Positions 3 to 11,274 of a stretch of 27,505 bases of DNA are shown piece by piece (the first letter of the stretch is position 1; every line of letters starts with the position of its first letter). The notes under the pieces were generated by a model that saw nothing but the letters and a program-made list of their open reading frames with translations, was not told the DNA's origin and made no database searches. Origin of the DNA: an uncultured Candidatus Saccharibacteria bacterium (GTDB lineage: Bacteria > Patescibacteriota > Minisyncoccia > Phycocordibacterales > UBA1006); assembly GCA_964471025.1 (NCBI GenBank), contig CAYYES010000004.1, forward strand, positions 1-27,505, written 5' to 3'. A program made the translations under genes and the position numbers.

Positions 3-2852
3 TGTTTAACCGGATGCCCCGGATCTGAATTCATTCAATTATTGAAAAACGGACAAACCAAGGAAGCCCGCGAGCTCGTCCAGTTCTATATCGATGCATT
101 CGGCAAGGATCATGTATTCGTCGAGGTCATGTGCCACGAAGAAACGGGTTTTTACCGTGAATGGTACCAGCCACTCATTCCCGAAATGAAAAAAATTGCG
201 GGTGAATTCGGGTTATCCATGGTCGGAACATGGGATTCCCACTATTTGTGTGCGGATGACAACGAAGCCCATGATACGCTCTTGAAAATCAACACAGGCG
301 GAGATTCCATGAAAATGGACGGCAATTGGTCGTTCATCAATCAGAAACAAGCCTGCGAAGCGTTCCGCGACATTCCCGAAGCAATCGAGGGGACCAAAAA
401 AGTTGCGGATTTGGTGGACATTGAAATTGAACTGTCGCCTTGGCGATTTCCCGAACCGATCATCCCTGCAGGCAAAACATATGACGAAGTGCTGAAAGAA
501 AACGTACTGGCAGGCATTGCGGAAAAAGGCATGACCTACGACGGCGCCGTCAAAGACCGCATTGATTTCGAATTGGACGTCATCAAACAAAAAGGATTCT
601 CTTCGTATTTCATCGTGGAAGCCGACATGGTACGCGCTGCAACCGCGCGCAAAATTTATACCAACACTCGTGGTTCAGCCGCAGGTTCGTTCGTATCATT
701 CGCAACCGGCATTACCAACATTGATCCATTGAAATACAAACTGCCGTTCGAACGATTCTTGAACCCGTTGCGCCCCGGCATTCCCGACATCGATCTGGAC
801 ATTGCCGATAACCGCCGCGACGACTTGATTTCCTATTTGAAAGAACGCTATGGCGACAAATCCGTGGCACAGATCGGTACGTTCGGCACCATGATGGCCC
901 GCGGTGCGGTGCGCGATGTGGCCCGCGCGCTCGGTTATCCGTACGGGGTCGGTGATAAAATTTCAAAAATGATTCCCATGGGATCCCAGGGGTTTCCGAT
1001 GACGATCGATCATGCCATGGAAACGATCACGGAATTGTCTGCGGAATATGAAAACGACAACGCCGCACGCGAAATCATCGATATGGCGAAAAAAATCGAA
1101 GGTAACGTGCGCCATCTCGGGGTGCACGCAGCAGGCGTGATCATTGCCCCAACCGGCGATGTGACGGATTTTGCCCCGATCCAATACGACCCCAAGGGCG
1201 AAGGAAAAATCGTAACGCAATACGACATGTATTCCGGCGGACGCGACGGCGTGGTGAACTTGCCGAAATTCGACTTGCTCGGATTGCGCAACCTAAATTT
1301 CATCGCCGAAACGGTCGACCGCGTGAAAAAAATCCGCGGGATCGACATCGACATGGAAAAAATTCCGCTCGACGATGCCAAGGTGTTTGAAATGCTTTCC
1401 CGCGGCGAAACCATGGGCGTTTTCCAGATGGCCGGCGGCGGCATGACCAAATACATCAAGGACCTGCGTCCGACCAAAGTCGAGGACCTGATGGCCATGG
1501 TGGCGCTCTATCGCCCCGGGCCGATGGAAGTAATCCCCGAATACATCGAACGCAAGCGCAATCCGTCACTCGTCACCTATCCGGATCCGCGCCTGCGCGA
1601 CGACCTAGAAGCATCCTACGGGTTGCTGGTGTACCAAGACGACGTGTTGTTTACGGCCATCCGCCTGGCGGGATATTCATGGCTCGACGCCGACAAATTC
1701 CGCAAGGCCATGGGTAAAAAAATTCCTGAGGAAATGGCCAAGGAAAAAGAAAAATTCTACAAAGGCTGCAAGGAGATCGGCGGCCTGGACGAATCCACGA
1801 TCGACGGCATCTGGAAAAAAATCGAACCATTCGCCGCATACGGATTCAACAAGGCGCACGCCGCATCCTACGGAATGCTCGCGTATAAAACCGCATACCT
1901 GAAAGCAAACTATCCCGCCGAATACATGACGGCCTGCATGACGGCCGAATCCGGCGACATTGAAACCGTTTCGGAATACATCAGCGAAGCAAAAAAAATG
2001 GGGTTCAAGATTTTGCAGCCGGATATTAACGAGTCATTTAATGACTTTACGGTCGTGGTGGAAGAAGAAACAAATCCCCCTCTTCTAGGGGGGGAGCCAC
2101 GCGAAGCGGGCGGGGGGGTACGGATTACCAATAAAATCCGATTCGGACTGAAAAATATCAAAAATTTCGGCGAGGAAATCGGCAAGGCGATTACCACCGA
2201 ACGCAAAACCCGCGGTAAATTCACCAGCATCGAAAATTTCCTGGAACGCGTCATTCATCGCAACCTGAACAAAAAATCGATGGAGGCACTGATCATGTCA
2301 GGCGCGTTCGATTCGTTCGAGGAGCGCGGCAAATTGCTTGCCAACCTCGAGGACATGCTCGCGTTTAACAAGGAAATCGCCAAGGAATCCGGCGACCAAT
2401 TGGGATTGTTTGCGGGATTCGACGGCGCACCCAAAGCGCATTTCAAACTGCGCGATGCGGAACCGACACCAACAAAACAAAAATTGGCATGGGAAAAGGA
2501 ATTGCTCGGTCTGTATGTAACCGGGCACCCGCTTGAACAATATGCAGATCGCCTGGCCAGTGCGAAACTGACCATCCGCCAATTGCGCACGATGGAAAAT
2601 CCGCCACTTGAAACGGCAATCGCGGGCATCATCGAGGAATGCAAGGAAATTTATACTAAGGCGAAAAATGAAAAAATGGCGTTCCTGCGCATCGCAGACC
2701 TGACTGGATCGATCGAATGTGTGGTCTTCCCCCGTTCGTTTGAGGAATTCAAGAAGCTTTGCATGGTTGACCAACTGGTCATGATCAAGGGCAAACTGTC
2801 TGAACGCAACGACGAACGATCCATCATTATCGACAACATGCGAGCGCTCTAA
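3..2852 (+). CDS. dnaE: DNA polymerase III alpha subunit (5' end outside window)
   Basis: Frame is open from nt 3 (CLTGCPGSEF, PHP domain). Motifs include DSHY, RGSAAGS, PDIDLD, HAAGV, KFDLLGL, FNKAHAASY and a C-terminal OB-fold (RIADLTGSIECVVF). Confidence 0.97.
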   Translation, partial: CLTGCPGSEFIQLLKNGQTKEARELVQFYIDAFGKDHVFVEVMCHEETGFYREWYQPLIPEMKKIAGEFGLSMVGTWDSHYLCADDNEAHDTLLKINTGGDSMKMDGNWSFINQKQACEAFRDIPEAIEGTKKVADLVDIEIELSPWRFPEPIIPAGKTYDEVLKENVLAGIAEKGMTYDGAVKDRIDFELDVIKQKGFSSYFIVEADMVRAATARKIYTNTRGSAAGSFVSFATGITNIDPLKYKLPFERFLNPLRPGIPDIDLDIADNRRDDLISYLKERYGDKSVAQIGTFGTMMARGAVRDVARALGYPYGVGDKISKMIPMGSQGFPMTIDHAMETITELSAEYENDNAAREIIDMAKKIEGNVRHLGVHAAGVIIAPTGDVTDFAPIQYDPKGEGKIVTQYDMYSGGRDGVVNLPKFDLLGLRNLNFIAETVDRVKKIRGIDIDMEKIPLDDAKVFEMLSRGETMGVFQMAGGGMTKYIKDLRPTKVEDLMAMVALYRPGPMEVIPEYIERKRNPSLVTYPDPRLRDDLEASYGLLVYQDDVLFTAIRLAGYSWLDADKFRKAMGKKIPEEMAKEKEKFYKGCKEIGGLDESTIDGIWKKIEPFAAYGFNKAHAASYGMLAYKTAYLKANYPAEYMTACMTAESGDIETVSEYISEAKKMGFKILQPDINESFNDFTVVVEEETNPPLLGGEPREAGGGVRITNKIRFGLKNIKNFGEEIGKAITTERKTRGKFTSIENFLERVIHRNLNKKSMEALIMSGAFDSFEERGKLLANLEDMLAFNKEIAKESGDQLGLFAGFDGAPKAHFKLRDAEPTPTKQKLAWEKELLGLYVTGHPLEQYADRLASAKLTIRQLRTMENPPLETAIAGIIEECKEIYTKAKNEKMAFLRIADLTGSIECVVFPRSFEEFKKLCMVDQLVMIKGKLSERNDERSIIIDNMRAL
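2075..2119. repeat. Palindromic element family B, long variant, in frame inside dnaE (encodes PPLLGGEPREAGGG)
   Basis: TCCCCCTCT-tct-AGGGGGGGA hairpin, then a GCCACGCGAAGCGGGC hairpin and GGGGGGGT. The core hairpin matches the copies at 9029 and 11010. Confidence 0.8.
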
Positions 2853-2869
2853 CCCCAACTGGGGTTTTT
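2851..2869 (+). terminator. Probable intrinsic terminator of dnaE
   Basis: AACCCC-aact-GGGGTT followed by a T run, directly at the stop codon. Confidence 0.5.
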
Positions 2870-2932
2870 GCGTTCCAGGACACCCTGCGCGATTGATTCC
2901 AATTCTATCCTTGGATGTGGTAGGATTTCCCT

Positions 2933-3436
2933 ATGGAACACGAAAAAATGCCTCGCCACACCCGTAAACCTCTGGATGTTGTTGCTGCTCATATCGCAGA
3001 ACACGCCACAATCCGCGAGGCGGACCTTATGGTGTCGCGATATTTGAAAACGCGCAGCGCAGAACTGGCGCAGGCAGGCGAACACGGTGCAAGCATCCTC
3101 CTTGAACATCTGCGCGAAAAAATAGAAAAGGAAATCGAATTGATGGATACGCTTCAGAGCATGGCAGCCGTGGGCGTCGAACGCACCATCGTGCACGGCG
3201 AGGATGATGAACAGCAGGATGACCCCATGATCATGGAAACTGCCGTCTTGAAACCGCGCGCGGGCGAATCCTCGGTCAACCTGGAAGCCGTCCGCGGACT
3301 GCTCGAGGATGTGCACCGCGCTCGTCTGTTTTTAGAGGAAGAAATCGAGGAACACTATCCCGAGGAAGCGCGGCTCATCAACCATCAGCTCCGCAACCAA
3401 CCGGATCTCGGCCAGATGCCGAAAAATCTCAACTAA
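2933..3436 (+). CDS. Hypothetical protein (167 aa, acidic, helical)
   Basis: ORF with TGgTAGGAT -10 box 6 nt before the ATG and host-like composition. No recognised motif. Confidence 0.7.
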   Translation: MEHEKMPRHTRKPLDVVAAHIAEHATIREADLMVSRYLKTRSAELAQAGEHGASILLEHLREKIEKEIELMDTLQSMAAVGVERTIVHGEDDEQQDDPMIMETAVLKPRAGESSVNLEAVRGLLEDVHRARLFLEEEIEEHYPEEARLINHQLRNQPDLGQMPKNLN

Positions 3437-3458
3437 AAAAGCAGCGACAAGCGCTGCT
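3435..3458 (-). terminator. Terminator between convergent genes
   Basis: AAAAAA-GCAGCG-acaag-CGCTGC, giving a U-tract on the minus strand. Confidence 0.55.
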
Positions 3459-3497
3459 GTATTGGGTGTATGATTCGCGAAAGATTTAATCCTATCT

Positions 3498-3926
3498 TTA
3501 TTTAAGAAAAATTCTTTTAAAATCAAAATTATTACCGCTAGTTTTAGTGCCTTCTAAACATTTAATCTTATCACCAAATGTCAAAAGCATGTCTGAATTT
3601 GAATAGGTAATTATTATTAGTACATCATTCTTGCTCCCAATCTGTCCTGAGATTTCAGTAGTTAACGCATTAATAATTTTTTTCGGTGTGTCTAACCCTA
3701 CAATTCCAGGCTTCGCAAAGGATTTTAAATTACCTGCAGGTAAAGGAAGAAACTGTATTAACGTTTCAGCAAGAGCCAAGGGGCCGACTGAGCGAGATGC
3801 AAGAATCCCGCATTTGCCATACTTTGCCTTTGGCAATACTTTCTTAATTAATGCTCCGAATTCCATCATATTACCCTGATTGAATTCGAAATCTGTGCTT
3901 ACAAGAAATAGTAATATCTTTTTCAT
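3498..3926 (-). CDS. Hypothetical protein (142 aa), AT-rich
   Basis: Long ORF in AT-rich DNA, with an A-rich leader and a downstream terminator. No recognised family. Confidence 0.65.
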   Translation of the reverse strand: MKKILLFLVSTDFEFNQGNMMEFGALIKKVLPKAKYGKCGILASRSVGPLALAETLIQFLPLPAGNLKSFAKPGIVGLDTPKKIINALTTEISGQIGSKNDVLIIITYSNSDMLLTFGDKIKCLEGTKTSGNNFDFKRIFLK

Positions 3927-4018
3927 TTTATTTTTATTTTTTAAAGCAAATCATATTTTTTATAAGAAGTCAACCCCCCTCCCCAATTCCCCTTATAAAT
4001 GCTATAGTTTCCCAATCT

Positions 4019-5785
4019 ATGGAACCTGAAAAGCTTTCTCATATGCGCCACACGCTCGCCCATTTATTGGCGCAGGCAGTAATCGAAAAATATCCCAACG
4101 CACAGCTGACGCTCGGCCCTGCCGTCGACAATGGTTTTTACTATGACATTGATTTCATCGACGCAAAGGTTTCAGATGACGATTTGAAGGAATTCCAGAC
4201 ATCCATGCGCAAAAACTTGAAAAAATGGACGGAATTCACCCACCGCGAAGTTTCACGCGACGAGGCATTAGAATTTTTCAAGGGAAATCCATACAAGAAA
4301 GAATTGATCAATGAAATCGCGGAACGCGGCGAAGCCATCACGCTCTACACCTGCGGAGGATTTACCGATCTTTGCCGCGGAGGTCACCTTGAAAATCCTG
4401 CAGCAGAAATTTCTGCAGATTCATTCAAGCTGGATCGCATTGCCGGCGCGTATTGGCGCGGCGACGAGAAAAATAAAATGTTGACCCGCATTTACGGACT
4501 GGCGTTTGAGTCCGTAGAAAAATTAGATGACTACTTGAAACAACGTGAAGAAGCCGAAAAACGAGACCACCGCAAATTGGGCAAGGAACTTGATTTGTTC
4601 ATCTTTTCCGATGTTGTCGGCAAGGGGCTGCCGTTGTGGACCGAAAAAGGAGCAACAATCCGCCGCGAATTGGAGCGGTTTATCGTTGACGAAGAATTGA
4701 AACGTAACTACAAACACGTTTATACTCCGGACATTGCAAAGTTAGACCTTTATCGAAAGTCGGGACATTATCCGTACTACAAGGAATCCATGTACGCGCC
4801 GATTGTCATCGATGACGAGGAATTTATGCTGCGTCCGATGACCTGCCCGCACCATTTCGAATTGTATTTATCTAAACCGCGCAGCTACCGCGAACTGCCC
4901 ATGCGCATCGGCGAATTGGCGAAATTGTACCGCTATGAGCAGTCAGGTGAATTGTCAGGATTGCTCCGCGTGCGCGGATTCTGCCTGGCTGATGCGCACA
5001 TCATTTGCAAGGATGCCGAACAAGCGGGATCCGAAGTAAATGGCGCGCTCGATTTGATTGAATACGTCTGCGCCGTGTTCGGATTAAAACCTGGAACAGA
5101 TTTCTGGTATCGCCTATCACTCGGCGATCGCGCCAATACTGAAAAGTATTACGACGATCCGCACGCATGGGATATCGCCGAAAACGAACTCCGCAAAGTG
5201 CTTCAAGCACGCGGTGTTCGCTTCGAAGAAGCAGCTGCCGAAGCCGCATTCTACGGACCAAAAATCGACATTCAGATGCGTGACGTCCGTGGCAAGGATA
5301 ACACCGCGTTCACGGTTCAGTATGATTTCGTCATGCCAAAACGATTCAAATTGAATTACACCGATTCGGATGGACAAGAAAAAGAAGCAATCGTGGTGCA
5401 CCGCTCATCAATCGGCGCGATCGAACGCGTCGTAGCATTCCTCATCGAGCATTGGGGCGGCAACATGCCAACCTGGTTATCACCGACGCAGGTTGCGGTC
5501 GTTCCGGTAAACGCTGAAAAGCACGGCACCTACGCAGCAGACTTGGCAAAACGATTGAAAGACTGGAACATTCGCACGGATTTCATGGACGACAACGATT
5601 CCATGGGCAAAAAAGTCCGCCGCGCGAAAAACGAACGCATCCCCTACACCATCATCGTCGGCGACAAGGACATCGAGACTAACATGGTGACCGTTGAAAA
5701 ACGAGGCGTGGAACAAGGAGAGCAAATGACATTTGACGATTTCAAGGAAAAAGTGTTGAAGGAAATCAGGGAACGCAGTTTATAA
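4019..5785 (+). CDS. thrS: Threonine--tRNA ligase (short form lacking the N-terminal TGS domain)
   Basis: HTLAHLLAQAV and DLCRGGH editing domain, GAYWRGDEKN, RDHRKLG, RPMTCPHH, FYGPKID, and the anticodon-binding domain. Confidence 0.97.
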   Translation: MEPEKLSHMRHTLAHLLAQAVIEKYPNAQLTLGPAVDNGFYYDIDFIDAKVSDDDLKEFQTSMRKNLKKWTEFTHREVSRDEALEFFKGNPYKKELINEIAERGEAITLYTCGGFTDLCRGGHLENPAAEISADSFKLDRIAGAYWRGDEKNKMLTRIYGLAFESVEKLDDYLKQREEAEKRDHRKLGKELDLFIFSDVVGKGLPLWTEKGATIRRELERFIVDEELKRNYKHVYTPDIAKLDLYRKSGHYPYYKESMYAPIVIDDEEFMLRPMTCPHHFELYLSKPRSYRELPMRIGELAKLYRYEQSGELSGLLRVRGFCLADAHIICKDAEQAGSEVNGALDLIEYVCAVFGLKPGTDFWYRLSLGDRANTEKYYDDPHAWDIAENELRKVLQARGVRFEEAAAEAAFYGPKIDIQMRDVRGKDNTAFTVQYDFVMPKRFKLNYTDSDGQEKEAIVVHRSSIGAIERVVAFLIEHWGGNMPTWLSPTQVAVVPVNAEKHGTYAADLAKRLKDWNIRTDFMDDNDSMGKKVRRAKNERIPYTIIVGDKDIETNMVTVEKRGVEQGEQMTFDDFKEKVLKEIRERSL

Positions 5786-5786
5786 T

Positions 5787-5810
5787 AAAAAAGCCCTTTG
5801 GGTTTTTTAT
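5787..5810. terminator. Bidirectional terminator between thrS and the convergent gene
   Basis: AAAAAAGCCC-ttt-GGGTTTTTT. Confidence 0.55.
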
Positions 5811-6244
5811 TTGTCGAGATAAATTATTTCAATTCCTAATTCCTTGGCTCGATCGTGTTCCCATGTCGCCCCAATGGATGATTGCCAGTCCGGTATGAAA
5901 TAAAATTTCTTGATTTTTCCTGTTTTGAAAAGTGGCAAATAGAATCCTTCTAAAATAACCATTTTGTCGCCACCGGATTGATCATAAAAGTATTTAATCT
6001 TTTCTTGGAATGGCATCTGATCAAACATTGCATTCCCTTCCTCGTAGCGTTCATCAATAACTTTCTGGAATCGTTCCAAGTTTTTCTCTCGGGAACCCAG
6101 CCCGCCACTTCCGATAGGGCCGGTAACCATTCCAATGTCACCATCTATCATATTTAATAACTTGAGCGCAAAATCTCTCATTTCTTCTACGGAAGCTACT
6201 TGCGATAATTCTTGAGCAAGATTTTCTGTCCAATAGCGTTTCAT
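5807..6244 (-). CDS. Hypothetical protein, DUF4406 / nucleoside 2-deoxyribosyltransferase-like fold
   Basis: VTGPIGSGG...NLERF...FDQMP...FIPDWQSSIGATWEHDRAKELGIEIIY resembles the DUF4406 pattern (GP..G; W..S.GA..E...A..LG). Family recognised by eye only. Confidence 0.55.
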   Translation of the reverse strand: MKRYWTENLAQELSQVASVEEMRDFALKLLNMIDGDIGMVTGPIGSGGLGSREKNLERFQKVIDERYEEGNAMFDQMPFQEKIKYFYDQSGGDKMVILEGFYLPLFKTGKIKKFYFIPDWQSSIGATWEHDRAKELGIEIIYLDK

Positions 6245-6309
6245 ATAATTCGAACCTTATCATCCGATTACGTATTTTGCAACAAAAATTTATGGTATAC
6301 TTGCTCCAT

Positions 6310-6504
6310 ATGAAAAACAACAACCTCTACAACCTGATGACCCAGTTGACCCAGGAAGCCCGATCATTGTGGCGCATTAAAAACGACTACATGAAAGACG
6401 CTGGTAAATCCAAGGAATTGAAAGCATTCTGGACAGAAATTGCATTGGAAAAGGAAGCATTGATCGCAGATCTCAAGAAGGTTATTGCGGTAGAAATGGA
6501 CTAG
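6310..6504 (+). CDS. Small helical protein (64 aa), possibly a ferritin-like half-bundle
   Basis: ATG at 6310 follows TGgTATACT (6293-6301). Sequence begins NLYNLMTQLTQEARSLWRIKNDYMKDA. The family call is tentative. Confidence 0.65.
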   Translation: MKNNNLYNLMTQLTQEARSLWRIKNDYMKDAGKSKELKAFWTEIALEKEALIADLKKVIAVEMD

Positions 6505-6532
6505 AAGAACATAGAACAAAGAACTTAGAACG
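6505..6532 (+). repeat. Heptamer array AAGAACA-TAGAACA-AAGAACT-TAGAACG
   Basis: Four tandem WAGAACN units. The innermost units overlap the S-F-stop codons of the four-helix gene. Confidence 0.9.
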
Positions 6533-6896
6533 AGTGTCCCATCGCCTTGCGCATAAATACGGTTAAAAGCTTTGCCACCTCGGTAAGGCTTTTTTCTAAT
6601 TCATCATGAACTCCCGACTTGATATATCCCAAATCTCTAGCAACCAAAATCTGACTTAAACATTCCATGGTTGATGCTTTTGCCATTAGATAAAATCTAC
6701 ATTTATCTTTTGCTGTACGCATCGTAAACCTTTCGGCAATATTTGAAACAATTGAAACTGAAGCTCTTTGTAGCTGATTAGAAAGGGCAAATCTTTCTTC
6801 CTGGGGAAAACTTTTTGTAATTTTATAAACAAAAAGCACAGCGTTGTGTGCTTTTTGCCAAACTACCAAATCTTTAAAAGTTCGTATTTCGCTCAT
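6525..6896 (-). CDS. Four helix bundle protein (23S rRNA intervening-sequence protein / Avd-like family)
   Basis: FKDLVVWQKA...YKITKSFPQEERFALSNQLQRASVSIVSNIAE...RFYLMAKAS..E..SQI..A.DLGY, the family signature. Confidence 0.92.
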   Translation of the reverse strand: MSEIRTFKDLVVWQKAHNAVLFVYKITKSFPQEERFALSNQLQRASVSIVSNIAERFTMRTAKDKCRFYLMAKASTMECLSQILVARDLGYIKSGVHDELEKSLTEVAKLLTVFMRKAMGHSF

Positions 6897-6918
6897 TAGC
6901 TAAATTATACCAACTCCT

Positions 6919-6945
6919 TGTTCTTTGTTCTAGTTCTCTGTTCTT
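6919..6945 (-). repeat. Heptamer array inverted relative to 6505-6532
   Basis: TGTTCTT-TGTTCTA-GTTCTC-TGTTCTT. Positions 6920-6932 are the exact reverse complement of 6512-6524. Confidence 0.9.
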
Positions 6946-9009
6946 TTAAATATCCAACTCCACCATCTTCGCATTGCTCTGGATAAACGATTTGCGCACC
7001 GACACGTCGTTCCCCATCAGCATGTCAAACGTTTTGTCGGCATCAATGGCATCATCGATGGTAACCTGTTTCAAGATGCGTCGCGCAGGATCCATAGTCG
7101 TTTCCCACAATTCCTCGGCGTTCATTTCACCGAGACCCTTGTAGCGCTGGACTGAAATCTTGGCAGACTTTTTGGCCTTTGCCTTGGTATCGGATTCGTC
7201 GGATTCTTCATCAGTTTCCTCGACAGAATCGTCAGCACCGGCCACTTCGCCACCCATGGCCTTGATGACCTTTTCTTTTTCCTCGTCGGAAAACGCATAG
7301 GCAACCTCCTTGCCTTTCTTGATTTTGTACAGCGGCGGCTGCGCGATATACAGATATCCCGCATCAATCACGGGACGCAGATAGCGATAAAACAGCGTCA
7401 GCAGAAGCGTGCGGATGTGCGCACCGTCGACGTCGGCATCGGTTGCAATCACGATTTTGTGATAGCGGATTTTTGAAATATCAAACGTTTCACCGATTGA
7501 TGTTCCTAATGCGATGACGATTGATTTAATTTCCTCGTTCGCAACCATTTTATCCAATCGTGCGCGTTCAACATTGAGCGGCTTACCCTTGAGCGGCAGG
7601 ATCGCCTGCGTTTTCTTGTCGCGGCCTTGTTTAGCCGTTCCCCCTGCCGAGTCTCCCTCTACGATAAATATTTCTGAATCCTCGGAATCCTTGGACTGGC
7701 AGTCAGCCAGTTTGCCCGGCAATGTGAATCCTTCCAGTGCACCCTTGCGCAGAATCGAATCCTTGGCAGCTTTGGCGGCCTTGCGCGCGCGCAGGGCGAG
7801 CACGGCCTTGTTAATGATGGCTTTGGCATCATCAGGATTTTCCTCAAGGAATGCTCCGAATGCTTCGGCAAACACGCTTTCTACGGCACCCTTGGCTTCA
7901 GGTGATCCCAATTTCGCCTTGGTCTGGCCTTCGAACTGGATTTCAGGCATTTTAACCGTCACCACGGCCGTCAAACCTTCCAGTACATCAGAGCCATCAA
8001 ACGATTCACCGTCCTTCAAAACTTTTTTCTCTTTGTTATAGCTGTTGATCAAACGCGTGAGCGCCGTCTTGAAGCCCGTCAGATGCATGCCGCCCTCGGG
8101 CGTTGAAATATTATTCGCAAACGGAACGATGCGCGATTGAATATCATCGACGTACTGCAGTGCGATTTCGACATTGATGTCACCCGCATTTTTGTCCACG
8201 TGGAAAATCTTGTCCTGAACGGCTTTTTGATTCTGGTTCAAGGAACGCACCATCGAAACGAGGCCTCCCTCGAAATAGAAGCTGAACGATGGTACTTCGT
8301 AACCCAATTCCATCATGTAGGTTTCGTTGTCCAAATTGATTTTGCCCGCATAGTCGCGCGCGTCCACCACCACGATTTTCAATTTTTTGCACAAGTATGC
8401 CTGTTCGCGCAAACGGTCCACGACGCGCTGGAAGTTGAATTTGACCTCCTTGAAAATTTCCACATCCGGTTCAAACGTAATCACGGTTCCGGTCTGTTTC
8501 GTTTTCGCAACGGCTTTTACCTTCGCCTTGGGTTTGCCCTGCGAATATTCCTGCATGTGCACTTGGCCTTCCTTGTGAACCTCGGCCTTCATGAAAATGG
8601 ACAAGGCGTTCACGACCGATGAACCCACGCCGTGCAAACCTCCGGAAACTTTGTAACCTGATCCCTCGCCGCCGAACTTACCGCCGGCGTGGAGCACGGT
8701 CAAAATGGTTTCGAGTGCCGAAACTTTGGTTTTGGGATGAATGTCAACGGGAATACCGCGTCCGTTGTCAACGACGCGGATGCGGTTGCCGGGAAGCAGT
8801 GCTACCTCGATATGGTCGGCGTGTCCGCCCATGGCTTCGTCGCGGGAGTTGTCGAAAATTTCCCAGATCAGGTGGTGCAAGCCGTCTGGACCAGTGGAAC
8901 CGATATACATTCCGGGTCGTTTGCGCACGGGATCAAGGCCCTCGAGGACCGTAATCGATTCAGCCCCGTAGGAGCCCGATTTTTTCGTTTTTTCAGTGTC
9001 TTTGGCCAT
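6946..9009 (-). CDS. gyrB: DNA gyrase subunit B
   Basis: VRKRPGMYIGS, LHAGGKF, GGLHGVG, toprim VEGDSAGG and TDADVDGAHI, QRYKGLGEM, and a C-terminal LDI. Confidence 0.96.
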   Translation of the reverse strand: MAKDTEKTKKSGSYGAESITVLEGLDPVRKRPGMYIGSTGPDGLHHLIWEIFDNSRDEAMGGHADHIEVALLPGNRIRVVDNGRGIPVDIHPKTKVSALETILTVLHAGGKFGGEGSGYKVSGGLHGVGSSVVNALSIFMKAEVHKEGQVHMQEYSQGKPKAKVKAVAKTKQTGTVITFEPDVEIFKEVKFNFQRVVDRLREQAYLCKKLKIVVVDARDYAGKINLDNETYMMELGYEVPSFSFYFEGGLVSMVRSLNQNQKAVQDKIFHVDKNAGDINVEIALQYVDDIQSRIVPFANNISTPEGGMHLTGFKTALTRLINSYNKEKKVLKDGESFDGSDVLEGLTAVVTVKMPEIQFEGQTKAKLGSPEAKGAVESVFAEAFGAFLEENPDDAKAIINKAVLALRARKAAKAAKDSILRKGALEGFTLPGKLADCQSKDSEDSEIFIVEGDSAGGTAKQGRDKKTQAILPLKGKPLNVERARLDKMVANEEIKSIVIALGTSIGETFDISKIRYHKIVIATDADVDGAHIRTLLLTLFYRYLRPVIDAGYLYIAQPPLYKIKKGKEVAYAFSDEEKEKVIKAMGGEVAGADDSVEETDEESDESDTKAKAKKSAKISVQRYKGLGEMNAEELWETTMDPARRILKQVTIDDAIDADKTFDMLMGNDVSVRKSFIQSNAKMVELDI

Positions 9010-9028
9010 AGGATTTAAGTGCCCGATT

Positions 9029-9063
9029 CCCCCTCTTTTAGAGGGGGTTAGGGGGTGTGTTTT
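9029..9063. repeat. Palindromic element family B, intergenic copy upstream of gyrB
   Basis: CCCCCTCT-ttt-AGAGGGGG-tta-GGGGGTGTGTTTT. It differs from the 11010 copy by one substitution and one indel. Confidence 0.88.
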
Positions 9064-9103
9064 ATAATTAAACTATTATATCACAAGGATATTTTGGGGA
9101 TAC

Positions 9104-9132
9104 TTGACTGTTAATATAATATATGCTATTGT
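9104..9132 (+). promoter_or_regulatory. Sigma70-type promoter of the 9166 gene
   Basis: TTGACT-N17-TATTGT with an extended -10 TG. Confidence 0.55.
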
Positions 9133-9165
9133 ATTATTAATTAACTAACCTAAACAACAATAAAT

Positions 9166-9492
9166 ATGGCTTTCAAGACAACCCTTCTTCAAGCGGCAAT
9201 AAACGCAAAAACTACTGAAATCAATTCTTTGGCCAAATCTTTTGGCTATCAAATGACTCCGTTAGTTACAAATGTCAAAAAGCTAAATACTGAATTCCAA
9301 AGAAAAGAACCTTCTCTTCTTCAGATTTCAAAACAGCTATTGAAATTAAAAAATTCAAAATTACAGCAGAACTCGACAAGAGCTTTCTACTATGTAAGTG
9401 ATGAAAGTACCTATTTAATGCAACAAATAGGGACGTTTGAAATACTTGCAGAAGAACTACGATACAAACTTGAATACAACGCGAATAACTAA
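9166..9492 (+). CDS. Hypothetical protein (108 aa), AT-rich
   Basis: ORF with its own promoter, an A-rich leader and a terminator. Confidence 0.65.
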   Translation: MAFKTTLLQAAINAKTTEINSLAKSFGYQMTPLVTNVKKLNTEFQRKEPSLLQISKQLLKLKNSKLQQNSTRAFYYVSDESTYLMQQIGTFEILAEELRYKLEYNANN

Positions 9493-9497
9493 CCACC

Positions 9498-9537
9498 AAC
9501 TGAGATCATTTTCCTTATATGATGATCTCAGTTTTTT
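9498..9537 (+). terminator. Terminator between convergent genes
   Basis: Perfect 12-bp stem AACTGAGATCAT/ATGATCTCAGTT followed by a T run. Confidence 0.65.
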
Positions 9538-11212
9538 ATTTCTCAATTTTTATATGCTCCCGCAAATAATCCTTCGTATCACCCACTTTTTTCCCGGGAT
9601 TGAAAATATTTTTCGGATCGAAAAGGGTCTTCGTAAATTTAAACAGTCCTGTAATAAACGGCCCGTACATTTTTTCCAAGTATGGCGTGCGAACAATGCC
9701 GTCGTTATGTTCGGCCGTGATTGATCCGCCGTAGGAAAGGACGAGGTCGTAAACTTTATCTGAAAGAGCCAAGATTAATGCCTTGTTTTCAGGCTTGCGC
9801 ATGTCCATCAGAGGAATAATATGGAAATTTCCGTTGCCTACGTGTCCTGCAATCGTGTAGGTAATATGCGCGTCATCCAGGAGCGTTTTTATTTTCGGCA
9901 TGAATTCAGGCAGAACGTCAGGAGGAACAATGATGTCGTCAATGAACGGCGCCGTGCGCGCGCCCTTTACATGCTTGCGCAGCAGATTGAACGATTCGCG
10001 GCGAATGCGCCAGTATTTTTCAGCCTCGGACGAATTGCGCGCACTATGCGTTTCGTACCCGAATTGTTTTTTTACCGCTGCTTCTATCAATCCGAGTTTC
10101 TCTGTTACCCCTCCCTCGCTTTCTCCTGTTACTTCAACGAGCACGGTCAGTTTCGGCATACCTCCACGCAATATTTTGATGCCGTCGGGAATCATGGCAA
10201 TGCCTAATTTAACAAAGCGCCACAGCCCCATCTGTTTCAGAAAATCAAAGAAAAACGTGAATGCCAGACGGAGACTATAATCATCAAATGATTCGATGCT
10301 TTCAGGCCGAAATGATACGAGTGTTTTTGCCAAATCCCCCACGCGATCAATTGAATTCATATAGATCGCAAGCACATTTGAAACCGGTGCAACCGGCACC
10401 AATTTCCACGTCATTTCCGTAACGATACCGAGGGTACCCTGGGACCCGACCAGCAATTTGTTCAAATCAAACACGCCAGTGTCCTTGTCCCACACGTTCC
10501 ACAAATAATATCCCGCCGAATTTTTCGAAACTTTGGGTTGTGCGTTTTTAATCGCATCGTAATTTTTTTCAATCGTTTCAAGGAGGCTTTTGTAGATACC
10601 GCCCTCGAAATCGCCCTGCGCGATTTTTGCATCCAACGCATCGCGCGACAGCGGTTTGACGACATATTCATTCCCATCGGAAAACACCACCTTGGTTTCG
10701 AGGATGTAATTTTCCATTTTGCCGTACTTGATTGATTTTTCCCCGCCCGCATTATTGCCGAACATACCGCCCGTTGCGCAAATATTTTTTGATGCGGTAT
10801 ACGCAGGCATCATGCGGCCCCGATCCAAGGTTTCCGTTTCAAGGTCCCGATACAGCAAGCCAGGCTGCATGACGGCAGCATCATCGGTGATCGAAATCAG
10901 CCGGTTCATATACCGCGTCACGTCGATGATTACCGAATCATTCAATGATCCGCCCGACATGCATGTTCCCGCAGCGCGCACGGTGAGCGAGATGTTGCGG
11001 TGTTCGGCGCCCCCTCTGTTAGAGGGGGTTGGGGGTGTGTTTTGTTCGTTCGCCCATTTCACCAAATTCTTGATATCCTCGGCATCGCGCGGAAATACAA
11101 CCGCCTGGGGCATTACCTCGAACAAGCTCGCATCATGCGCATACGCCGCACGCGTTGCCGCATCCGTTGCAATGTCGCCCTGAAATACCGGTTTGAGGGT
11201 GTCGAGATTCAT
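9536..11212 (-). CDS. FAD-binding oxidoreductase (D-lactate dehydrogenase / GlcD-like, FAD_binding_4 plus FAD-oxidase C-terminal domain)
   Basis: PQAVVFP, RAAGTCMSGGS, GGMFGNNAGG, LLVGSQGTLG, GHVGNGNFH, GSITAEHNDG. Start placed at ATG 11212, 6 nt after TATACT. Confidence 0.88.
   Translation of the reverse strand: MNLDTLKPVFQGDIATDAATRAAYAHDASLFEVMPQAVVFPRDAEDIKNLVKWANEQNTPPTPSNRGGAEHRNISLTVRAAGTCMSGGSLNDSVIIDVTRYMNRLISITDDAAVMQPGLLYRDLETETLDRGRMMPAYTASKNICATGGMFGNNAGGEKSIKYGKMENYILETKVVFSDGNEYVVKPLSRDALDAKIAQGDFEGGIYKSLLETIEKNYDAIKNAQPKVSKNSAGYYLWNVWDKDTGVFDLNKLLVGSQGTLGIVTEMTWKLVPVAPVSNVLAIYMNSIDRVGDLAKTLVSFRPESIESFDDYSLRLAFTFFFDFLKQMGLWRFVKLGIAMIPDGIKILRGGMPKLTVLVEVTGESEGGVTEKLGLIEAAVKKQFGYETHSARNSSEAEKYWRIRRESFNLLRKHVKGARTAPFIDDIIVPPDVLPEFMPKIKTLLDDAHITYTIAGHVGNGNFHIIPLMDMRKPENKALILALSDKVYDLVLSYGGSITAEHNDGIVRTPYLEKMYGPFITGLFKFTKTLFDPKNIFNPGKKVGDTKDYLREHIKIEK
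11010..11043. repeat. Palindromic element family B, in frame inside the FAD oxidoreductase (NTPPTPSNRGG)
   Basis: CCCCCTCT-gtt-AGAGGGGG-tt-GGGGGTGTGTTTT. Confidence 0.88.
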
Positions 11213-11274
11213 AATGGTAGTATATCGTACCCGATACTTGCGCAACAGTTTCCCGAAACTCATTTTTGTTGCAC

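Follow-up and report, generated by a model that had tools for sequence, protein, structure and literature searches.

In this work, a family of short G/C-rich repeats is described from a Candidatus Saccharibacteria genome, starting from three copies in the window, i.e., the whole stretch of DNA analysed, which comprises the first 27,505 nucleotides of contig CAYYES010000004.1 (assembly GCA_964471025.1). The layout of their arms identifies these repeats as class II intrastrand triplex motifs of the BoxC/PIT/TM (triplex motif) kind, in which a triplex fold would be expected by analogy, and the element represents a new, coding-tolerant, cassette-linked variant of this already known kind of repeat. 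On balance, the evidence favours, if only modestly, a genus-wide TM family whose modules are the termini of small cassettes carrying a DUF559 nuclease gene and whose derivatives are spread in trans by the cognate nuclease. Since the 1990s, BoxC/PIT/TM repeats have been listed for hundreds of bacterial genomes and, to our knowledge, neither an origin nor a mover nor a function is known for them.

The host genome (G000; 645 kb in 69 contigs) was compared with those of eight congeners, giving nine genomes of the genus (G000–G008). Genome sizes across the family range from 0.4 to 0.9 Mb, and the source is wastewater.

Architecture of the Module and Its Copies in the Window

In each module, a pyrimidine arm and a complementary purine arm are separated by a loop, and after a second loop there follows a G-rich tail as the mirror of the purine arm; altogether, the module comprises 31–45 bases rich in G and C. 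Across the family, the second loop consists either of 2–3 nt or of a small extra hairpin. The tail is the purine arm reversed, with A kept or turned into T, as seen where AGAGGGGG is followed by GGGGGTGT or AGGGGGGG by GGGGGGGT. The three copies in the window are the following:

2076..2119, plus strand: long-form TM module, in frame in dnaE (DNA polymerase III alpha)
9029..9058, plus strand: short-form TM module, non-coding, between the divergent gyrB (minus strand) and an open reading frame (ORF) at 9166..9492 (plus strand)
11000..11038, plus strand: short-form TM module including the outer flank GTGTTCGGCG (11000-11009), in frame and in reversed orientation in the minus-strand gene for an FAD-linked oxidase

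All three lie at the places given in an earlier note on this DNA, although the first starts at 2076 and not at 2075. The window sequence also agrees with that note in that the stems are kept while loop 1 varies, and in that the two coding copies have opposite orientations relative to their genes and leave both frames open. The three copies form one family, as was claimed, but not a single sub-type, since the dnaE copy is a long form with a loop-2 hairpin and carries G in its purine arm and tail where the short forms have A and T. In this copy, the pyrimidine arm (2076-2083), the loop TCT (2084-2086), and the purine arm (2087-2094) are followed by a 17-nt stem-loop (2095-2111), which takes the place of the usual 2–3 nt, and by the mirror tail (2112-2119); the purine arm AGGGGGGG has one G.T wobble against the pyrimidine arm, and the tail reads GGGGGGGT. 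The module at 9029-9058 reads CCCCCTCT-TTT-AGAGGGGG-TTA-GGGGGTGT and that at 11010-11038 reads CCCCCTCT-GTT-AGAGGGGG-TT-GGGGGTGT, the GTGTTCGGCG preceding the latter being part of the family consensus. The pattern CCCCCTCT-NNN-AGRGGGGG is found at three sites in the 27.5-kb window versus none in 100 dinucleotide-preserving shuffles, and no Rfam family matches anywhere in the window. The copies at 9029 and 11010 were also considered as intrinsic terminators, a reading that was dropped because one is intragenic, the other lies upstream of two divergent genes, and the T-run falls outside the family consensus.

The genes of the window that contain or adjoin a module are as follows:

3..2852, plus strand: dnaE, truncated at its 5' end by the start of the contig; Pfam DNA_pol3_alpha, finger, HHH_6, and OB domains
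6946..9009, minus strand: gyrB; Pfam DNA_gyraseB, Toprim, HATPase_c, and GyrB_C; the module at 9029 lies in its 5' leader or promoter region
9536..11263, minus strand: FAD-linked oxidase; Pfam FAD_binding_4 and FAD-oxidase_C; the third module lies within the FAD_binding_4 domain

The module at 9029 is located 20 nt upstream of the gyrB ATG, beyond which there is no in-frame start codon upstream.

A purpose-written finder, which requires a pyrimidine arm, a complementary purine arm, and a mirror tail within 32 nt, detected 28 modules in the 645-kb genome versus 1, 3, and 3 in three shuffled genomes. Six sub-families with distinct arms can be distinguished, and in each of them the purine arm and the tail co-vary by the same mirror rule (G to G, A to A or T), which is also kept in more than ten arm variants adjoining DUF559 genes of sister species. 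The nearest relative of the dnaE copy is a long form at C22:2372; between these two, a joint change has affected the purine arm (A to G) and the tail (T to G) but not the pyrimidine arm, a single case of arm–tail co-variation. Loop 1 is variable over about 60 copies, and the outer flank GTGTTCGGYK is common to many A-type copies. Folding energies, calculated for the hairpin part alone, correspond to z values from -2.0 to -4.1.

Insertion into Protein-Coding Genes

About 16 of 24 genome modules are in frame within ORFs of at least 200 amino acids (aa). Their hosts include DnaE, the FAD-linked oxidase, RecG, the CCA-adding enzyme (two modules), the clamp-loader subunit delta', an S-adenosylmethionine (SAM) methyltransferase, TsaD (two modules), and seven other long ORFs. 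In congeners, 25 of 31 A-type copies in G007 and 11 of 21 in G003 likewise lie in long open frames. Within the window, the frame stays open through both coding copies, which encode the peptides PPLLGGEPREAGGGV in DnaE and NTPPTPSNRGG in the oxidase; counted from the alignments, the dnaE module adds about 16 aa (48 nt), with TNPPLLGGEPREAGGGVR replacing GE-V, and the oxidase module about 14 aa (NTPPTPSNRGGAEH).

The 16-aa insert of DnaE is missing in all eight congeners and in the other 19 family-level orthologues aligned, and the 14-aa insert of the oxidase is missing in five congeners. Moreover, in approximately 89%-identical contigs from two activated-sludge runs (X5 and X6), positions 10985-11046 are replaced by 20 other letters, which leaves them 42 nt shorter. 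The 98-bp doublet in the CCA-adding enzyme is missing in 5/5 congeners compared, and the insert of the C1 protein in 4/4 congeners with an orthologue. The modules are DNA-level insertions that arose after the species of the genus had split, and they persist in coding DNA only where the frame is kept and a tolerant surface loop has been hit. This bears out the view that the peptides in the window are recent in-frame indels; the opposite case, that is, orthologues with the same peptides and a broken hairpin, was not found for the window copies, as the congeners compared are devoid of the peptides. Since the modules survive in frame in tolerant loops, the inserts would be read through as peptides rich in Pro, Gly, Leu, and Ser, to judge from the open frames; among the public runs in which the locus was found, none is an RNA run.

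An AlphaFold2 model of DnaE, built with 28 orthologues (mean predicted local distance difference test score, pLDDT, 77.8), shows the insert as a beta-hairpin tip joining strands 133-138 and 156-163, and residues 141-148 have a pLDDT below 50. The insert, for which a surface loop had been expected, is thus modelled as a disordered, low-confidence loop. Five of the 19 orthologues mentioned above, all from other genera, carry an unrelated extension of 21–28 aa at the same tip, in alignment columns 143-175, with a shared ...P.G..TPDGR.IT pattern, and this tip may be a general insertion-tolerant spot of DnaE.

The dnaE module is spanned intact by contigs from a close variant of the strain, with 18 differences over 1142 nt, and by contigs of a run from a different study. 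In the best-matching public run (X1), the short-read Logan contigs end at all three modules (window positions 2123, 9032-9056, and 11011-11038) and, therefore, these repeats fragment assemblies of the lineage, as expected for repeats.

Distribution across the Genus

The repeats behave like a mobile family, with 0–31 exact-hairpin copies per species and species-specific bursts. Exact A-type hairpin sites number 7 in G000, 21 in G003, 3 in G004, 2 in G006, 31 in G007, and 6 in G008, and none were found in G001, G002, or G005, nor in any of the 52 genomes sampled outside the genus within its family and order. The A2 type reaches 27 copies in G002 and 0–4 elsewhere, and C-type copies range from 0 to 33 per genome. 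The element is dispersed, as had been proposed from the window alone: further copies are found on at least 10 contigs of the host genome, and the exact hairpin occurs in five of the eight congeners (2–31 copies).

DUF559 Cassettes and Their Putative Derivatives

The window contains no candidate for a mobilising enzyme, as the earlier note had stated. A DUF559 gene flanked by the same hairpin, which it had suggested looking for, lies in a cassette elsewhere in the host genome (C19:7128-7589), in which two inverted copies of the window's module enclose an ORF of 131 aa (7185-7580). This ORF matches Pfam DUF559 (PF04480) end to end (E 1.5e-23) and the structure PDB 3HRL (E 4e-12), and its last codons and stop lie inside the right-hand module. 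The host genome has two DUF559 genes, on contigs C19 and C7, both outside the window. The other partner suggested, an HUH enzyme of the RAYT (REP-associated tyrosine transposase, REP being the repetitive extragenic palindrome) or IS200 type, was not borne out, given that none of the nine genomes of the genus has a Y1/RAYT match (PF01797), while control genomes do match. In a scan of genome contigs with the C19 protein, a single distant relative was found, in a metagenome-assembled genome of Spirosomataceae. Since the upstream neighbour gene of the C19 cassette occurs in one congener only and is non-syntenic there, no empty orthologous site can be defined for this cassette.

The association extends to the whole genus, in which genomes have 0–9 DUF559 genes. 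A triplex-type module lies within 220 nt of every DUF559 gene examined (28/28) and on both sides of 26 of them, and most of these genes have modules of the same sub-family and with the same loop on the two sides. On the DUF559 tree, module type changes 12 times versus 13–19 times (mean 17.6) in 500 label shuffles, a test that overstates independence because some of these genes are orthologues. The commonest loop variant of the C-type copies is one that flanks a DUF559 gene of the same genome in G003 (TCC), G008 (ACGATAGT), and G001 (CGCAG), and in G007 such a flanking variant (CTTCG) is one of the two commonest. The A2 burst is located in G002, a genome with an A2-flanked cassette. The summed copies of four module types correlate with the number of DUF559 genes (Spearman 0.86; n = 9 related, non-independent genomes). 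G005, the sole species without DUF559, has no intact module of the four types but only decayed ones. At a methyltransferase loop that contains modules in other species, G005 (L077) carries a perfect palindrome with an 11-bp stem, GCGCGGCTTGC-TTC-GCAAGCCGCGC, translated in frame, which is perhaps all that is left of a long-form module after decay, namely its loop-2 hairpin.

G002 contains at least nine doublets resembling MITEs (miniature transposable elements with inverted repeats), with A2-type ends and two hairpins 55–139 bp apart, several of them with a further internal hairpin (L126-L134). These doublets share sub-terminal inverted repeats with the DUF559 cassettes of the A2 clade, most clearly with the G004 copy. 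Two of the G002 doublets are in frame, in ORFs of 247 and 331 aa. In the host genome, the doublet of the CCA-adding enzyme (C22:2372-2469) resembles the C19 cassette minus its ORF. DUF559 domains have also been observed inside open frames of 1033 aa (G007:C90:563-916), 448 aa (G008:C39:3270-3590), and 1220 aa (G003:C43:1736-1999), the first of them in a context resembling leucyl-tRNA synthetase. From their reading frames, these domains appear to represent complete nuclease cassettes that are translated in frame as parts of larger genes.

Possible Turnover of Sub-Types at Shared Sites

In four proteins, sister species have modules of different sub-types, in some cases in opposite orientation, inserted at one and the same loop, and in other species this site is empty. 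The sites in the host genome, compared with orthologues L063-L082, are the following:

L006:2288-2322 and L006:2476-2512: TsaD, two sites
L005:735-765: methyltransferase
L002:9345-9381: RecG
L004:1930-1980: clamp-loader delta'

At the second tsaD site, all but one of about 31 arm bases are identical between the orthologous copies of G000 and G003, whereas neither loop is the same and the adjoining codons disagree at about one position in four. The pattern at these shared sites means either that loops able to tolerate an insertion are very scarce or that a resident module attracts other modules, which replace it. On locus L002, ARAGORN also predicted a tRNA-Ile gene with anticodon TAT (5519-5594).

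A comparable pattern is found directly upstream of dnaJ, where a DUF559 gene is present in three species:

G000:C7:9660-10260 (L035)
G003:C22 (L038)
G004:C17 (L045)

These three genes cluster on the tree and yet have different flanking sub-types in each species, which suggests in-place turnover of the repeats.

Proposed Mechanism and Alternatives

Spread driven by DUF559 proteins is the best available mechanism, although an unproven one, and that the repeat is selfish and mobilised by an enzyme is what we infer rather than observe. According to this mechanism, the modules would be the terminal parts of small cassettes carrying a gene for a DUF559 nuclease with a Vsr fold, and doublets (two modules and a short spacer) and solos would be their non-autonomous derivatives. 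The cognate nuclease, acting on the folded module, would spread, homogenise, or replace these derivatives in trans, with existing modules apparently serving as preferred landing or replacement sites. The logic would be akin to that of the REP/RAYT system with an unrelated enzyme.

Several observations weigh against this mechanism. No nuclease activity, cut site, or binding was found published for any DUF559 protein. Copy-specific target-site duplications were not found either, as repeats in a copy's own flanks average 4.17 nt versus 3.96 +/- 0.14 after permutation, the observed value being reached by 79 of 1000 permutations; in particular, GTTCGG-like words flanking many A-type copies were considered as a duplication and rejected, the permutation test assigning them to the element consensus and not to individual copies. 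A-type copies are present in G003 (21) and G008 (6) without an assembled A-clade DUF559 gene, in assemblies that are 88–91% complete and fragmented at repeats. Modules adjoin DUF559 genes in no constant orientation (tails in, tails out, or direct), and the DUF559 gene upstream of dnaJ, with orthologues in three species, therefore has the look of a long-standing resident and not of an active mobile unit. Finally, the correlations are drawn from nine related genomes, and the folding energies back the hairpin part only, triplex folding being proposed by analogy.

A broader and distinctly more tentative proposal, which we hold to be possible but not probable, is that DUF559 nucleases are the missing protein partners of BoxC/PIT/TM repeats in general. 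Every lineage of these nucleases would recognise the folded form of the module framing its gene, and by cutting this module it would set off the copying of the module to new sites as well as over older modules. If true, this would explain the succession of sub-types at the same protein loop or locus in sister species. Moreover, where genomes are tiny and nearly devoid of spacer DNA, the surface loops of essential proteins would be the main home of such a system.

Among the alternatives, the one that survives best, although we consider it unlikely, is that solos are not mobile at all but are footprints of whole DUF559 cassettes or doublets now lacking their interior and one end. Such losses would be favoured by selection, in coding loops, for the shortest insert that can be tolerated, and several structures speak for this explanation, namely the CCA-enzyme doublet (C22:2372-2469), which looks like the C19 cassette with its ORF deleted, a G002 'solo' that keeps the doublet interior on one side, and the DUF559 domains inside long open frames (the 1033-aa frame of G007:C90, G008:C39, and G003:C43). 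The lack of flanking target duplications around solos is also in line with this explanation. However, A-type solos far outnumber doublets and cassettes, most of them have no remnant of a cassette interior but just the conserved outer flank, and simple recombination cannot delete inverted ends.

Somewhat less likely still is a spread by host processes with no dedicated enzyme, e.g., by template switching or by replication stalled at a hairpin or triplex and repaired from another copy, in which case the DUF559 genes would be passengers that land or persist between repeats. TM motifs have been tied to local genomic instability with no mobile-element association (Holder et al. 2015, PMC4666352), and the A-type copies of G003 and G008 without an assembled cognate DUF559 gene, the replacement of sub-types by one another at one site, and the variable orientation of modules around DUF559 would all fit such a process. 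It accounts poorly, however, for the match between the commonest C-type loop variant and the flanks of a DUF559 gene of the same genome in at least three congeners, for an A2 burst in the genome that holds an A2 cassette, for the lack of intact modules of the four types in the only DUF559-free genome, and for a module type that tracks the DUF559 tree.

It is very improbable that the inserts are host-selected peptide loops or regulatory RNA or DNA signals that are alike by convergence and not copies of one element: the peptides are indeed flexible loops rich in Pro and Gly, and two copies lie just upstream of gyrB and dnaJ, but the same nucleotide sequence recurs in either orientation, in various reading frames, and outside coding sequence as well, orthologues are devoid of the inserts, the arms at the second tsaD site are kept but for one base between G000 and G003 while loops and flanking codons have diverged, and no Rfam family matches in the window. 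Metagenome assembly artefacts, with repeats mis-joined into genes, can practically be dismissed: the short-read contigs of the likely source run do break exactly at all three modules, but the dnaE module is crossed without gaps by contigs of two further runs, of which one belongs to a different study, the frames are open through every coding copy, and eight independent species assemblies behave alike at other sites.

Significance of the Repeats in Ultra-Small Bacteria

In this genus, the repeats are tolerated inside essential enzymes (DnaE, RecG, TsaD, clamp-loader delta', and the CCA-adding enzyme) and show a systematic link to a single small nuclease family, for which no published function was found. 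Should this link to DUF559 be causal, as the mechanism of spread by DUF559 nucleases proposes, it would represent a new type of repeat-and-enzyme system, provide a function for DUF559, and explain a source of lineage-specific loops in the proteins of ultra-small bacteria. Loops derived from modules matter for annotation and structure prediction, and for assembly as well, because contigs break at the modules.

Comparison with Known Repeat Systems

The family matched by the C19 ORF is DUF559 (PF04480), which includes the 'endonuclease-like protein' of PDB 3HRL and YcjD of E. coli; neither a published function nor a published association with repeats was found for it in the literature. As in MITEs, inverted ends are present in the doublets, whereas solos are single-ended and no target-site duplication above chance accompanies the copies.

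The earlier note had compared the element with Rickettsia palindromic elements (RPEs) and short cyanobacterial repeats. The likeness to RPEs holds as regards in-frame insertion, since both are selfish-looking palindromes situated in frame in unrelated housekeeping genes and add extra peptides compatible with the fold. RPEs are about 100–150 bp long, confined to Rickettsia, and without a known partner gene (PMC10969869). However, they have no mirror tail, while the modules described here span 31–45 bp with a triplex-type architecture and are unrelated in sequence. Because its G-rich tail mirrors the purine arm, the element belongs to the BoxC/PIT/TM kind and not to RPEs or cyanobacterial repeats.

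The REP/REPIN–RAYT system, REPINs being REP doublets forming hairpins, is alike in having hairpin singlets and inverted doublets, an enzyme gene flanked by the repeats, and repeat variants matched to the resident enzyme gene. Its enzyme is an HUH Y1 transposase, whereas here it is DUF559, with a PD-(D/E)xK or Vsr-like fold, and the repeats are not extragenic.

The closest relatives in architecture are the BoxC, PIT, and TMECO repeats, TMECO being the triplex motif of E. coli. Holder et al. 2015 (PMC4666352), citing earlier work on BoxC and PIT, reported that a TMECO oligonucleotide forms a triplex in vitro, as observed by circular dichroism (CD) and nuclear magnetic resonance (NMR), that the E. 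coli copies are always intergenic with no mobile-element association found, and that loci with the motif are unusually rearranged. The 23 E. coli sequences of their Table 1 consist of a pyrimidine arm, 3–4 nt, a purine arm, TTA or CCG, and a mirror arm (PMC4666352), and the layout described here matches them block for block, including TTA as the second loop. Conserved stems, variable loops, singlets together with inverted pairs, and many copies per genome are further shared features. As regards loop lengths, the modules at 9029 (TTA) and 11010 (TT) conform to this scheme, whereas the dnaE copy departs from it with its 17-nt loop-2 hairpin. The arms in the window (CCCCCTCT) differ in sequence from those of TMECO, although the E. 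coli arms CCCTCTCC(C)/GGGAGAGGG/GGGTGAGG also occur in C-type copies elsewhere in the host genome. In contrast to TMECO, reported to be always intergenic and to have no linked enzyme, two of the three copies in the window and about 16 of 24 in the genome are in frame, some of them in essential genes, and the long form with its extra loop-2 hairpin and the position of modules at the ends of DUF559 cassettes are likewise features unlike those of TMECO. In E. coli MG1655 itself, about 170 bp separate the DUF559 gene ycjD from TMECO no. 9, which lies just downstream of it (L171, 1351204-1351420), a proximity that is not mentioned in PMC4666352, and a second, BoxC-like hairpin overlaps the ycjD stop codon.

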